Origin: Eledone cirrhosa
Taxonomy: Eukaryota
DNA: 64,000 nt
Direction of reading: 5' to 3'
Assembly: GCA_964016885.1 (NCBI GenBank)
Contig: OZ024754.1
Location: 10,106,001 to 10,170,000 of the forward strand
The notes beneath the pieces were generated by a model. That model was not told where the DNA came from. It worked only from the letters and a program-made list of their open reading frames with translations, and did no database searches. This document shows, in pieces, positions 12,043 to 51,676 of this stretch. The position numbers were made by a program, and so were the translations under genes. The stretch's first letter is position 1; every line of letters starts with the position of its first letter.

Positions 12043-12303
12043 ATATATATATATATATATATATATATATATATATATATATATATATATATATATATAT
12101 ATATATATATATATATATATATATATATATATATATATATATATATATATATATATATATATATATATATATATATGCAAAAGTTTTATTTAAAATTGTT
12201 GGGTTACGAGTAAATATTTTATAACTGATATAAAAGCACTCAACAGGTTTTGGAGTATTTTACGATATAAAACAAATGGAAACTACATTTATAAAACCAT
12301 ATT

Positions 12304-12369
12304 TATTTCATTATATATATTTCAGGGATATCATATTAAAAATATGGTATGCCCTCTTCAGATAAAATA
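12304..12369 (-). ncRNA. Minimal type I hammerhead ribozyme (mirror copy)
   Basis: Exact reverse complement of 12395-12460. Confidence 0.8.
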
Positions 12370-12394
12370 CAATATATAAACTGTTTATATATTG

Positions 12395-12460
12395 TATTTT
12401 ATCTGAAGAGGGCATACCATATTTTTAATATGATATCCCTGAAATATATATAATGAAATA
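12395..12460 (+). ncRNA. Minimal type I hammerhead ribozyme
   Basis: Stem I TATTTTAT/ATGAAATA, core CTGAAGA (12403), 31-nt stem II, GAAA (12441), palindromic ATATATAT stem III, predicted cut after 12452. Confidence 0.8.
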
Positions 12461-12812
12461 AATATGGTTTTATAAATGTAGTTTCCATTTGTTTTATATT
12501 GTATATATATATATATATATATATATATATATATATATATATATATATATATAATCCTTATCAAGCCCTCTTCGGATCTTAGTCTTCACATTTATTATTA
12601 CTATGCGTGTGTGTGTATTTAATACTTGATATTGTAGGTTAAGAGCATTGATGTTTCAAGCAATAGTCCTTTATCACAAGATAGAAAAAGGGAGGGGAGA
12701 GAAGAAAAAATAGAAAGATAGACGAGAGTATGATTAGAAAGAAAAAATGCACACATCTCTCTCTCTCTCTTTACCATTATGTCTATGTGTGTGTGTATAT
12801 ATATCTATCTAT

Positions 12813-13070
12813 CTAAGGCGGGTAAAATTCCCGAGATCCATGGACGAGTTCTCTCCAGCGGTCTCTGTCCCTCATTATCGCTGCCATATCCTGCATCTCC
12901 AACAGACCAGTGTCTGTCCTTAGGGCATCAACATATGTTAACCTTGGTCTTCCTCTTCTAGTGTGTCCATGTAGGGGCTCCCAAAGGAGCACTGAGTGCA
13001 ATGTCATCTCTGGATGTCGGTGAGCATGTCCAGCTAACCTCAGTCTCCTCTGTGTCACTTTTGAGCTGAC
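12813..13070 (-). mobile_element. RTE-clade LINE 3' fragment
   Basis: RRLRLAGH...LLWEP...RRGRPRLTYVD...RDRDRWR, a typical RTE ORF C-terminus. Confidence 0.88.
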
Positions 13071-13922
13071 TTTATATATATATATATATATATATATATT
13101 TATATATATATATATATATATATAAATATATATATATATATATATATTTATATATATATATATATATATATAAACACTCTACTTGCCTGCATTGAGTGCT
13201 ATCTGCGTAATGTTTGAATATATTCAACACACCGATATTTATAACACCTACTTCAGTGTACACACATTCCCACATGTTTCATTTTTTCTGAAATCCATCA
13301 GGACCCAATAAAATAAGTACCAGTAATACGAAACAGTCAATCCAATCAGATGTACCGTCTAATAAACATGTTCTTTGCATACTTCAGTGATCCCAAAGGC
13401 TTTGTCCTCCCATATAAAAATCAATTCCATATATATGTTCCAATAGAACATCACAATGTTAGAGATGGGAAACGAAATTAACACTTTTATTATATTTTGT
13501 AGCGTCTCACATCTCACAAGTGACACAAAATGAAATATCATTCGCCAATCAACATTGAACCTAGATCAATAATACTCTAGAGGTCAATACCTTATCCATA
13601 ATACATCTGTAACACCCTTTTTTTCTTCCTAGATTTTCAGATAAACACATTCAAAATATTATGTCAAACTTAATGGAAATATAGTGAAAAGCTATGAATA
13701 AATAACAATATGATAGTAACAAGCAATCAATGATGAAAATAGCAACTATAATTAAGAAAACTATCCAAGGGTACAGAGCAGTGCGTAGGCTGGAGATTGT
13801 GGCACACAAACTATCAGTATGTGTTTATTTTTAACAACTAAGAGATTTTTGCATATTTATAGAAATATGCTATCTTTCACATGGACACAGACATGTTTTT
13901 TTCAATTATAATGGTACAATAA

Positions 13923-14256
13923 TGGTTTCTACTAATGGCACAAGGCCAGCAATTACCCCCAGTGCATTACTGGTGCTTTATGTTATCGACTCCGAAAGGA
14001 TGAAAGGCAAAGTACACCTCGGCGCGATTTGAACTCAGACTGTAAAAGGCCATAACTCTATGCTGCTAAGCATGGCGTCTGACCCTCTACCGACACTGCC
14101 AACCCACTGCCCTGTATATAATGATAATAATAATTGTTTCTACTTTTGGCACAAGGCCACCAATTACTCAGTGTATTACTGGTACTTTATTTTATCAACC
14201 CCGTAAGGATGAAAGGCAAAGTTAACCTCGGCGGGATAATAATAATAATAATAATG
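13923..14256 (-). mobile_element. Tandem Nin-like SINE copies
   Basis: Same blocks as 3021-3350, separated by (AAT)n. Confidence 0.8.
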
Positions 14257-48663: not shown

Positions 48664-49040
48664 TTAACCCTTTAGTAATTACAATACTCTATATATACTG
48701 TTGTATTTTTGTGGAAAAGGCTTTATCTCACATAATATCAAATCTACAAGATTTTGATAATATATTGTTCTCAAAATAAGTACTAACTTAAATGTGAGCA
48801 GCCAGATATGGCTGGTTTGAACAGAAAGAGATGAGAGAATTCTGGCTGGATATGGCCAGTTTAAATGGTAAAGGGGTAAGAGGGGAGTCTATTAAATTGA
48901 TCCCAGTGGGTTACAGGTACTTTATTTTATCAGCTACAAGTAAGGGTGAAAGGCAAAGCTAACCTCAAAGGGATTTGAACTCAGACCATAAAGGAATGTA
49001 ACTATATGCCTGTTGACCAACACTCTACCAATACTGCGAT
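48664..49040 (-). mobile_element. MITE nested in a Nin-like SINE
   Basis: TTAACCCTTTAG...TAAAGGGGTAA, then SINE body; SINE 3' end near 48637. Confidence 0.7.
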
Positions 49041-50516
49041 TTCACCTGTAGAGTGTATGCGTGAGAGAGAGAGAGAGAGAGAGATAGATAGAGAGATATT
49101 GAGAGAGAGATAGAGAGAGAGAGAGACAGAGAGACAGAGAATGTGTGTTTATTTCAGCTCTTACCTAAAATACCAACTGACCTTATTCAACTCTGGAAAT
49201 ATTTCTAATGATCTACTCCAGTCTTATGGTTTTAGATAAATGTGTATTAACAGTAAGAGAGAAAAAAAAAAAGTAGTAGAGACACAGAAGGCTGGAGGTG
49301 CAGCGGTAAATGGAGGAGGAGGAGAGGGGTATGAAGAGAGGGGGGTGCACATTCCATCTCATAATTTAGCAAATTAATATTGTAGTTTTGAAAAAGTAAG
49401 GTTAAAAGGTGAGTGTATGGGTCAGATGGTGGTGATGGTAGCAGTTAATGTTTGAAGGAAGCACATCTACATAGGAAAAGAGAGTTAAATTCAATGAACC
49501 ATACTTCTATATAAATATCGAAGTTCTTTACTGTCTTTATTTTGTTAGTTTATTTGTTAGTTTATTTTTTAGTTTCTGTGGTCAGGTGCACTGTCTGTTT
49601 GAAATAAAATTAATTTATAGCACCAGTGCAGTGCAGCATTCAAATTGATGTCCACTAATCCTGGAACTACACATATGAATGGTGGACAAGATAGCACTAA
49701 TGGATGGAAAGATTTGGATGTGTGTGTGTGTATAGACACATATACACAGAGAACCACACACAAACACACAGATACCTAGACACATATACACAAACAGAAC
49801 CACATACACACACACACACTCAGACCCCACCATCCACCCACATACAGAGAGAGAAAGACACACACACACACGGACACACAGAGTAGATAGGAGACTAGAT
49901 AGAGGAAAGCTGAGAGGGGTTGTGTGAGAGAGAGGGGGTGTGTATATAGAGAGGGACAGAGAGAGAGATGTGTGTGAGAGAGAGAGATGTGAGGGAGATG
50001 TATATATATATAGAGAGAGAGAGAGAGAGAGAGAGAGAGAGAGAGAGAGAGAGAGAGAGAGAGAGAGAGAGAGAGAGAGAGAGAGAGAGAGAGAGAGAGA
50101 GAGAGAAGTATACCTCAGTGATACTAATGATAACACTAGAAATATAACCCACCATTAGTATTGTGTTTACGGTTTGTTTTCTGGTTTGTTTTTCCTGTTT
50201 TTTATATTGTTCTTTTTACCTTTAGTTTTGTTTTCCTTATCTTTATTGGTGGAACAAAATAACAAACAACAACAAAACAACAGCAAAACAACAACAAACA
50301 CAAATGAACAATATTTGTGAAACAAAGATATCAACATAAAATTCCAGTAACTCATTTGTTTGGGGTGTTGAAATCTCTTCCATTGATTACATTATCACAC
50401 TAGCAGCACCCTCACCATCATCATCATCACCATAATCATCATCGCAAACATCTTTGTCATCGCCATCATCATCATTGTAATCATCATCATCATCATCTCT
50501 CTCATATATATATATA

Positions 50517-50938
50517 TCGTTTCTGAATTTGTTTAGCAAGATTCTTTATCTGAAAACGTGTGTTGAAACCGATATTGTTATACTTTGGGAGGGTCATGTT
50601 GCCAATAAGAAACACACGCACCAGTTGCTGGGGATTCTTTTCTTTGTTTTTTGTGCCTCTCTTTTGTTCTGTCCTACGCCATCTTGATGGCGTAGGACAG
50701 AACAAAGGAGAGGCACAAAAAACCAAGAAAAGAATCCCCAGTCACTGAAGAGGTCACAGAATGTGTGACGAAAGAACTTTGACAATATATAAACAACCAT
50801 CTGATTGTGGAACCAACCAACCAACCGGATATTTATAAATTCCTCAATTTATAAATTTATTATAATAAATTGAAGTGAAAGCAACTGGTGCGTGTGTTTC
50901 TTATTGGCAACATGACCCCTCCCAAAGTATAACAATAT
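50517..50938. mobile_element. Nested fold-back element with degenerate HHR
   Basis: Outer IR 50572-50629 and 50880-50938; inner IR 50628-50683 and 50686-50741; (TA)n flanks. Confidence 0.75.
50741..50783 (+). ncRNA. Minimal hammerhead ribozyme, slightly degenerate
   Basis: Stem I GTCA/TGAC, CTGAAGA (50745), one extra G, stem II GTCACA/TGTGAC, GAAA, AGAACT, UU site. Confidence 0.6.
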
Positions 50939-51042
50939 ATATATATATATATATATAACAAAGGAAATGTGGTAAGGAACTAGATGGACCATAACGCACC
51001 AGAGTACTCAATACTTAGAGTAGTAGAGTGGGAAATAGGAAA

Positions 51043-51150
51043 AAGTATGACCCCGACGGCAGAGCTCAAGCCGTTTCGACGGCTATTTCTGGACTAAATT
51101 AGAATTTTTAGCCTGGTGAATAAATAGCCAAACATGTCAAGGGGGTACTT
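51043..51150 (-). ncRNA. Type I hammerhead with U3-A8 core and extended stem II (A9 mutated in this arm)
   Basis: CCCC-TTGACAT-long stem II-GAAACGGC-TTGAGCTCT-GCCGTC-GGGG. Confidence 0.6.
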
Positions 51151-51359
51151 CCTTATATGGGAAGATTGTAGTTGTCAAGAGGATTGGTTAAAATTTGTTG
51201 TAAACACAAATAAGTCTATCATGGCATTTGGTGGGGGGTAGGGGTGGCTGAACTTGCCTGTAGAACAATAGAGGGGGAGTGAGTGCCATGATAGACTTAT
51301 TTGTGTTTACAACAAATTTTAACCAATCCTCTTGACAACTACAATCTTCCCATATAAGG

Positions 51360-51466
51360 AAGTACCCCCTTGACAAGTTCGGCTATTTATTCACCAGGCT
51401 AAAAATTCTAATTTAGTCCAGAAATAGCCGTCGGAACGGCTTGAGCTCTGCATCGGGGTCATACTT
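51360..51466 (+). ncRNA. Type I hammerhead with U3-A8 core (GAAA and cleavage site mutated in this arm)
   Basis: CCCC-TTGACAA (51370)-CGGCTATTT/AAATAGCCG stem II-GGAACGGC...GCATC-GGGG. Confidence 0.55.
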
Positions 51467-51676
51467 TTTCCTATATATATATATATATATATATATATAT
51501 ATATATAATATATATATATATATATATATATAAATATAGATTCAGCGAGAATCGCATTTCGGCAGGTGGAAAAGGCAAAACGAAACGCAAAAATCAGATA
51601 TGATACTGGCAAGCACTCGATAGTTAAAAAACCAGAGCTAAACAATATATATATATATATATATATATATATATAT

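Follow-up and report, generated by a model that had tools for sequence, protein, structure and literature searches.

A twin bulged hairpin in the leader of Hydra-clade Penelope-like elements as a candidate RNA anchor for internal priming of reverse transcription

The window, that is, the whole stretch of 64,000 nucleotides of Eledone cirrhosa DNA that was analysed, carries eight copies of a short hairpin of the form ACUC, stem-loop, UY, GAGU. An earlier note on this DNA had regarded it as a tail hairpin shared across unrelated families, and as a cis RNA signal for recognition or priming by a reverse transcriptase (RT). The questions raised by this locus are whether the motif is real, which elements carry it, and what it may do in them.

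Occurrence of the motif in the window and the genome

All eight sequences are present at the reported positions and on the reported strands. When the window was searched with the pattern ACTC-N8-18-TTGAGT, eight matches were obtained as compared with 1.92 in shuffles, none of which (0/100) reached eight. These matches comprise seven of the eight copies and one at 29996-30021. The latter was rejected as a chance match: its upper stem is unpaired and its predicted fold is different. The copy at 51614 deviates from the pattern, with G at the outer 5′ position and UC as the bulge.

In the whole genome, a tight pattern gave 166,479 matches, as compared with 2,930 for the reversed control (57-fold). 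In 390 kb of the genome sampled blind to the motif, 20 matches have an upper stem of at least 3 bp, and 18 of them are followed by a (TA)n run within 120 nt. Among 825 tetramer-plus-bulge combinations compared, 15 exceeded the motif in stem-bearing matches, and all of these were microsatellite words. The hairpin motif is real. None of the 96 matches in an Rfam 15 scan (E up to 1) is centred on any motif copy; a few overlap an element, and these are low-scoring matches of microRNA models to palindromes or repeats. No description of the hairpin was found in the literature searched.

The elements carrying the hairpin and its conservation

The copies and the insertions around them are as follows. 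Hairpins 1 and 2 are the first and second copies of the motif in an element, and the short end point is the one just upstream of hairpin 1.

12238..12256, minus strand: hairpin 1, within the tail of a fragment of a family A Penelope-like element of the Hydra clade (assigned by sequence and pattern match)
12177..12501, minus strand: family A insertion with an inverted arm, a direct arm with a predicted hammerhead (12319-12361) and a tail (ends mapped), flanked on both sides by (TA)n
13176..13197, plus strand: motif copy D, straight after a (TA)n run (sequence)
20947..20965, plus strand: hairpin 1 in a family B tail (sequence and pattern match)
20827..21009, plus strand: family B palindrome (predicted hammerhead 20881-20904) and tail, a fixed 183-bp unit (copy comparison)
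21167..21190, minus strand: hairpin 1 of family C, insertion ~21117-21326, ribozyme 3′ half only
40227..40250, plus strand: hairpin 1 of family C, insertion ~40115-40300, ribozyme 3′ half only
40895..40917, plus strand: hairpin 1 of family E, a diverged relative of family A; ribozyme part absent, SINE adjoining
41556..41716, plus strand: family A-type copy, tail-less, predicted hammerhead 41620-41657; it stops at the short end point, so that the hairpin is absent from it
51006..51029, minus strand: hairpin 1 of family C, 8 nt past the short end point (51038/51037)
50957..51471, minus strand: family C insertion with an inverted arm, a direct arm with a predicted variant hammerhead (~51045-51149) and a tail
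51615..51638, minus strand: motif copy F, with a G-U outer pair and a UC bulge, in a tail-like insert

Judging from sequence, six of the eight copies trace to (TA)n-targeting Hydra-clade Penelope-like elements; copies D (13175) and F (51614) are the two without an ORF link. Craig et al. 2021 (PMC8557442) give as traits of this clade DKT, RW[KR], a CxCx5C linker, a C-terminal GIY-YIG and (TA)n targeting, together with a hammerhead in the pLTR, inverted arms and an optional tail, and these traits are common to the elements here. The hallmark change of DKG to DKT with RW[KR] was found, as DKT and RWR, in family C and in the locus L080, and both columns are conserved in the protein alignment. The C-terminal GIY-YIG and the CxCx5C linker were read as motifs in the translations of L060 and L080; a Pfam scan of the element protein gave no significant family, and the GIY-YIG call is a motif reading. 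A structure model of the protein alone, silent on RNA contact, is confident and TERT-like. In the relatives of family A, the sequence runs on into hairpin 2 and then into a Hydra ORF; in L267, a relative of family E, the two hairpins are likewise accompanied by a Hydra ORF, and the autonomous relative of family B is a Hydra-clade element. The 183-bp unit of family B matches at 98-100% in 40 scored of 1151 candidates.

A full element is ordered as hammerhead ribozyme, hairpin 1, hairpin 2 and ATG, the optional Penelope tail (70-140 nt) contains hairpin 1, and tandem arrays of elements have a 3.5-kb period. Intact Hydra-clade reading frames of 784 aa are present. Canonical hammerhead cores are predicted in families A and B and a U3-A8-type variant, a core already described (PMC4209133), in family C, with one base changed in the arm within 50957..51471. 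The earlier note had placed five copies downstream of a hammerhead arm. This holds with a canonical core at 12237 and 20946 and with the variant core at 51005, while at 21166 and 40226 only the 3′ half of the ribozyme was found. The description of the families as unrelated must be given up: three copies belong to a single family, the family at 12237 has a relative in 40894, and the window families are, from their sequences, homologous sister families of one clade. A search for further copies or relatives of copy D gave none. The 112-bp insert of copy F (51533-51644), which is tail-like, lies between (TA)n runs; a search for it gave 1948 candidates, and the relatives examined have neither an ORF nor a canonical hammerhead core nearby. 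A pattern search for a hairpin 2 of copy F gave 0 matches.

Hydra loci of other hosts were found by protein alone, blind to the motif, and provided 64 upstream regions. The motif is present in 50 of them, with at least two copies in 31, and is absent from 14. On the reverse strand it was found in only 5 of the 64, and among 572 ORF windows in 19; its placement is strand-specific. A structure-only scan chose the motif stem and bulge in 48 of the 64 loci (6 for the runner-up of that class) and recovered the first bulge U de novo. The motif is retained among proteins only ~35-45% identical, with flanks and loops diverging and stem pairs changing on both sides across diverged elements.

Covariation was assessed as an anchored count in these other-host loci; MAFFT misaligned the 5′ strand of 67 short instances. 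The first upper pair, which was not selected for pairing, is Watson-Crick in 84% as compared with 46% in shuffles (0/5000 shuffles), and consists of 33 C-G and 19 U-A of 62. On a protein tree of Hydra-clade loci only, without reference or outgroup sequences, it switches 6 times, at least 3 of which are forced by well-supported branches. The upper stem does change while mostly staying paired, as had been proposed. The CUC/GAG pairs and the first bulge U are invariant, and the pairing of CUC with GAG is without covariation proof because these pairs never vary. The bulge is composed of U and a variable second base; the supposed constancy of the lower stem and the two-pyrimidine bulge is confirmed for CUC/GAG and the first U, and the bulge is not strictly two pyrimidines. 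Among the 100 matches listed for this genome, read by eye with families pooled, the outer pair is A-U in 84, G-C in 10, G-U in 4 and A-C in 2. When the eight window copies were folded, the minimum-energy prediction gave the bulged form in only 3 (z from -2.4 to 0.04). Coding conservation, with the second bulge base varying like a third codon position, was rejected: the motif precedes the ATG, loop length varies freely, and in family C, where the motif is non-coding, there is an in-frame stop in the loop.

Ends of the inserted copies and the proposed role of the hairpin

Three features were found in the positions at which copies end. One is that a (TA)n run occurs at the end of 47 of 61 aligned copies and that 38 of these 47 ends lie 6-9 nt before a hairpin (unbiased 390 kb, seven family groups), 15 of them before hairpin 1 and 23 before hairpin 2; this fixed-distance result equates insertion ends with cDNA starts, and family B is a partial exception. 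Another is that there are two fixed end points, mostly at UA, one a little upstream of hairpin 1 and the other of hairpin 2, and that the spacing between the hairpins varies (71 to 138 nt) while the distance from end to hairpin is constant. The 24 family C loci comprise 13 with the short end, 9 with the long end, 1 that continues into the ORF and 1 that is broken. The last is that, in other hosts, the 3′ copy stops at most 4 nt from a hairpin in 17 of the 23 loci that no contig end interrupts, and that 4 of the 23 end mappings misfit. The optional Penelope tail is accounted for by the two end points, since it lies between them with hairpin 1, and hairpin 2 is missing from inserted tails because this second copy sits just beyond the tail.

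In family B, the long end is often used, yet the position of hairpin 2 holds a plain 4-bp hairpin without a bulge. A pattern search for hairpin 2 of this family gave 20 matches; 4 of these loci were read, and none continues into a bulged hairpin. The 73 extended copies (of 74) that were examined include no source locus of the 183-bp unit (0/59 and 0/14), so that copies with a tail may be mobilised again even if they lack hairpin 2.

The twin bulged hairpin of the Hydra clade is probably an RNA anchor that positions internal priming of reverse transcription. The GIY-YIG domain would nick (TA)n DNA, and the nicked 3′ end would pair with the UA upstream of a hairpin. Anchored on the hairpin immediately 3′ to this UA, the RT would then copy upstream from the UA. 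If hairpin 1 were used, the products would be tail-less copies and inverted arms, and if hairpin 2 were used, copies with a tail of 70-140 nt containing hairpin 1. Since the used hairpin would lie downstream of the start, it would not be copied, and both sites would therefore be together only in tandem transcripts. The cis signal suggested in the earlier note is supported as a candidate: it fits the covariation, the strand-specific placement and the fixed distance to the ends. It is amended in that the families are homologous Hydra-clade ones, the motif usually occurs as two copies, and the hairpin lies downstream of its likely start site. The reduced hairpin 2 of family B and the weak folding of the hairpin count against such an anchor.

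It is unlikely that the hairpin instead acts as DNA, recognised by the GIY-YIG domain, which would cut a fixed distance away to resolve the insertion intermediate and so set both ends. Tails have been ascribed to endonuclease-mediated resolution (PMC8557442), the D. virilis endonuclease needed tail sequence for recognition (PMC11167929), fixed distance and covariation suit any single-stranded nucleic acid, and the counts of G-U and A-C in the upper stem (15 vs 10 over four pairs) barely favour the RNA sense. However, in the one element tested, the ends coincide with the positions at which the RT starts on RNA (PMC11167929), and here the end precedes the hairpin and usually falls at a UA that matches the target, as for a priming site. 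A nuclease or terminator that makes RNA 3′ ends upstream of each hairpin, followed by end-primed reverse transcription, would explain the same geometry without protein anchoring. We consider this improbable: a hammerhead is already present, copies end elsewhere than at its cut site, and a sister clade initiated internally on unprocessed RNA (PMC11167929). Still less probable is control in the 5′ leader (translation, autoregulation or packaging), with ends adjoining the hairpins only because the linkers are unpaired and UA-rich. Hairpin 2 usually lies ~20-50 nt ahead of the start codon and the TAR-like core suggests binding by a regulatory protein, but only 41 of the 464 TA sites of the references lie inside the 6-9 nt windows and these take 38 of the 47 ends, so that many other UA sites in these AT-rich regions are unused, and both hairpins share one offset. 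Chance similarity or shared ancestry without function is highly improbable in view of the genome-wide excess and the retention across diverged proteins with two-sided pair changes, although the window, with three copies from one family and A and E related, holds fewer independent cases than claimed.

Penelope-like elements are the closest mobile relatives of telomerase, and the hairpin bears on RNA and start-site choice in them. It is a short clade-wide candidate signal, for which anchoring predicts that the start site moves along when the hairpin is moved. If this is true, a single rule covers both end points as well as the tail and the tandem dependence. The hairpin also provides a 166,000-copy marker for annotating Hydra-clade elements.

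Comparison with known systems

In the available parts of PMC8557442, tails are 30-40 bp long and are attributed to endonuclease resolution, whereas those here are 70-140 nt long and bounded by twin hairpins; no conserved tail hairpin is described there, the words "hairpin" and "stem-loop" occurring 0 times in its main text. For Poseidon PAc of Anolis, internal RT initiation in vitro was found at two sites that bound the tail, and the protein-binding region lies near the ORF start, with a conserved binding motif not defined (Frangieh et al. 2024, PMC11167929). PAc and the elements here are alike in having two start or end sites that bound the tail and a site region near the ORF start. However, initiation in PAc takes place in an AC-rich stem-loop that is part of the ORF and involves no target homology, whereas the sites described here belong to the 5′ leader and fall at UA, and one conserved motif follows each. 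The motif is not visible in the letters of the stem-loop of PAc, the only element tested in vitro.

In the arginine sandwich of HIV-1 TAR and 7SK, U23 forms a triple with A27-U38 and arginines are bound at G26 and G28 (PMC6189040). The motif likewise has a purine, a bulged U, and then G-A-G paired to C-U-C; in its sequence, a paired purine precedes the bulge pyrimidine and the pairs G-C, A-U and G-C come next, and the triple and arginine-binding positions of TAR correspond to its invariant positions. It differs in that the loop closes the other end (a circular permutation) and in its context, a retrotransposon leader. By this analogy, the fixed U bulge and the CUC/GAG pairs could be arranged in a U.A-U triple like that of TAR and be recognised by arginines, a reading that we offer tentatively, and the arginines are perhaps those of the RxRWK helix of the clade. 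The likeness is probably convergence; if so, it would be a natural convergence on the TAR arginine-binding fold. It is possible, though we hold it with some reserve, that this ~20-nt circularly permuted TAR-like hairpin is a clade-wide ruler for a telomerase-related RT: an arginine-rich helix would clamp the hairpin, DNA would start 6-9 nt upstream of it anywhere in the RNA, and both the tail of Penelope elements and their dependence on a tandem arrangement would arise from duplication of the hairpin.

LINE/R2 3′ stem-loops, telomerase template-boundary elements and hepadnavirus epsilon are small RNA structures that bind an RT and fix the start or end of the copy. In contrast to these signals, the hairpin here is located on the 3′ side of an internal start, is present in duplicate for two alternative starts, and would be left out of the copy that it directs.

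Occurrence of the hairpin and its carriers

The hairpin motif, ACUC-[upper stem-loop]-bulge-GAGU, is real, acts in cis by its placement throughout one known clade of retrotransposons, and is apparently undescribed. All eight copies reported in the earlier note were found in the window. The plain pattern gave 8 matches there against 1.92 in shuffled sequences, and none of 100 shuffles reached this number; seven of the matches are copies of that note, and the eighth, at 29996, is unpaired. Many tails in 39 stretches of 10 kb, chosen from the whole genome by position alone (390 kb), carry the motif again. 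Among 825 tetramer-plus-bulge combinations scanned in this sample, it was the top non-microsatellite choice near (TA)n, with 18 of 20 matches within 120 nt of a run. Across the genome, a tight pattern matched 166,479 times, as compared with 2,930 for the reversed control. The repeat content of the window is that of a large mollusc genome.

The carriers had been regarded as unrelated families. Families A (12237) and B (20946) run on into ORFs that fit a Hydra profile made from 35 proteins, and copy 40894, a diverged relative of family A, has a relative of its own (L267) that likewise leads into a Hydra ORF. Therefore, the carriers are sister families of the Hydra clade of Penelope-like elements. 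For copies 13175 and 51614, pattern searches and relatives in this genome gave no ORF link. A further Hydra family (L080), picked by its ORF in the 390-kb sample, carries it as well, with 60 nt inserted at the apex. The marks seen in the motif-carrying element are those given for the Hydra clade in PMC8557442. The motif is non-coding, because at the family C locus L056 it lies at 1746–1769, upstream of the ATG at 1911, and has an in-frame stop within the loop.

Family C also forms head-to-tail arrays that repeat every 3.5 kb and keep frames of 784 aa open (L114 and L115; G000:C1:437200456-437211438 and C1:91476138-91487154), and the large number of intact, almost identical copies hints at recent activity. 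Its hammerhead (window about 51045–51149, −; L056, L114) has the U3-A8 core variant that Schistosoma elements are reported to have; its stem II is long and its stem III complete. Other elements in the window and at compared loci were as follows.

50518–50934: a further element flanked by (TA)n; it has a long inverted repeat (50612–50757) and, near 50745, a hammerhead-like core missed by the core pattern used for hammerheads
43508–43888: inverted repeat of 185 nt, perfect, around a centre of 11 nt and adjoining (TA)n; probably one more pair of inverted Penelope-like arms
7619–10156: a 47-bp unit repeated 54 times in tandem, which also occurs within a dispersed tRNA-like SINE of the window (near 11920 and 51890, for example)
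12816–13070 (−): LINE reverse transcriptase 3′ end, presumably RTE-like by its motifs; no Pfam match
L048:1409–2927 (−): broken Penelope-like ORF of another type, with YVDD and a different linker
L017:4350–8288 (+): Rep and helicase reading frames, which we take to be Helitron-like by their motifs

Pairing in the stem and occurrence in other hosts

Covariation was examined in 62 instances picked regardless of pairing, some false calls included, with 5000 shuffles. Watson-Crick pairing was seen at the first upper pair in 84% (33 C-G and 19 U-A) versus 46% after shuffling, at the second in 62% versus 34% (n = 56), and at the third in 66% versus 25% (n = 41); no shuffle matched the observed pairing at any of the three. 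Mapped onto a 44-protein tree (30 labelled), the first upper pair of hairpin 1 switches six times, at least three switches being forced. Covariation holds for the upper stem. At the outer position, A-U prevails in this genome and G-C in other hosts, and one of the compared loci (L255) has U-A. The three inner pairs are invariant, so covariation does not prove them. The bulge had been described as two pyrimidines; its first base is indeed U, but the second can also be A or G (UU 44, UC 9, UA 8 and UG 1 among 62). Of the eight window copies, three have the bulged form as their minimum-energy fold, and six form the lower stem. Such weak predicted folding would be compatible with a protein-stabilised site, yet it is not support for one.

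In a protein-only scan of metagenome contigs, the best 77 of 453 loci were taken as Hydra-like (34–43% identity), and 64 of them included the N-terminus together with 45 nt or more of upstream sequence. The motif occurs in 50 of these 64 upstream regions, and twice or more in 31, against 5/64 reverse strands and 19/572 ORF windows; many of the 14 regions without it are truncated or interrupted, as judged by eye. A stricter descriptor found it in 23 of 62 loci. When structure only was scanned for, the same stem with a 3′ two-base bulge starting with U was seen in 48 of 64 loci, the runner-up in its class in 6. When the six published Hydra consensi (supplement S7 of PMC8557442) were read by eye, the motif was clear in three families, one from a coral and two from sea cucumbers (one of these has it twice), partial in two, and unseen in one, which has no pLTR. 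A search of the Naiad and Chlamys files for exact 9-letter words from the 3′ half of the motif, a weak test, met them in ORF-like context only.

In the upstream regions of the other-host loci L188–L264 and in the window copies, the flank just past the hairpin is conserved as well (ACT in 67 of 76), and the 3′ strand plus this flank is nearly self-complementary; it could mediate RNA dimerisation or a switch. In some predicted folds, the 5′ strand of hairpin 1 pairs with the 3′ strand of hairpin 2.

Insertion ends relative to the two hairpins

Full elements have the order ribozyme, hairpin 1, hairpin 2 and ATG, with the second motif copy past the tail, 71 to 138 nt from the first. Inserted copies with a tail hold hairpin 1 only, and those without a tail lack the hairpin (for example, window 41556–41716). 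With family C excluded, a tandem-hairpin pattern matched 2,221 times versus 148 in the control; 16 of 30 inspected loci lead to a Hydra ORF, 9 belong to one family that shows no ORF over 1.5 kb downstream, and 5 are chance-like. In this family (L147, L150, L156, L163, L165, L167, L170, L171 and L175), which carries two motif copies, a canonical ribozyme core was not seen, and one copy has a Hydra C-terminus upstream.

Among 24 family C loci, 13 have short ends (five of them one duplicated cluster), nine have long ends, one extends into the ORF, and one is broken. At L056, the short and long end points lie 8 and 6 nt upstream of hairpins 1 and 2, respectively. In the unbiased 390 kb, 61 copies were aligned to 18 references, the outer ends of inverted arms being counted, and 47 were found to end at (TA)n: 15 at 6–9 nt before hairpin 1, 23 at 6–9 nt before hairpin 2, and nine elsewhere, including four at 4, 5 or 10 nt. 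The 6–9-nt windows hold just 41 of the 464 TA sites of the references; the binomial value for this is overstated, as copies were counted as independent. In other hosts, 23 loci have both 5′ and 3′ copies on a contig not ending there, and in 17 of these the 3′ copy breaks off no more than 4 nt from a hairpin; of the other six, two fit by eye and four do not.

Family B argues against this regularity: 9 nt past its long end there is just a simple hairpin of 4 bp, and its long ends are more scattered in the 390-kb mapping. Its palindrome and tail (window 20827–21009; L002–L015) form a unit of constant size, 183 bp, and the 40 best-scoring copies, 98–100% identical, have the same single inversion junction. 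The unit is young and repeated, and can be likened to a SINE-sized non-autonomous element. A search for its source locus found the junction in none of 73 of 74 extended copies; other inversions were seen by eye in 8 of 59.

Possible role and known systems

In PAc, a Penelope-like element of Anolis from the sister Poseidon clade, reverse transcription begins internally at two sites bounding the tail, according to PMC11167929. Insertion ends were taken here as such start sites: the same hairpin follows each inferred start at a distance of 6–9 nt, and in most cases a UA that matches the target lies at the start. The Hydra-clade protein probably binds the hairpin and primes at the UA upstream, the hairpin setting the start like a ruler, which is a testable model for the Penelope tail with a candidate RT-recognition stem-loop. 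Action of the hairpin at the DNA level and action in RNA processing are less probable candidates.

The earlier note knew of no description of the motif, and none was found in the literature searched (subscription journals, Repbase/Dfam annotations and bioRxiv supplements were beyond reach); the accessible parts of PMC8557442, PMC4209133 and PMC3846280 describe tails, palindromes and ribozymes, not the tail hairpin. Nor is the motif seen in the PAc stem-loop letters in the accessible part of PMC11167929. A likeness exists to the HIV-1 TAR hairpin, whose arginine sandwich involves A22, bulged U23, G26, A27 and G28 with C37, U38 and C39 (PMC6189040); the invariant positions of the motif correspond to these. 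The Hydra-clade protein, whose structure model resembles TERT, has R-x-R-W-K/R conserved in a long N-terminal helix (alignment and structure model), and it is a speculation that these arginines read the hairpin. The motif would be a new instance of an already known type, the RT-recognition stem-loop.
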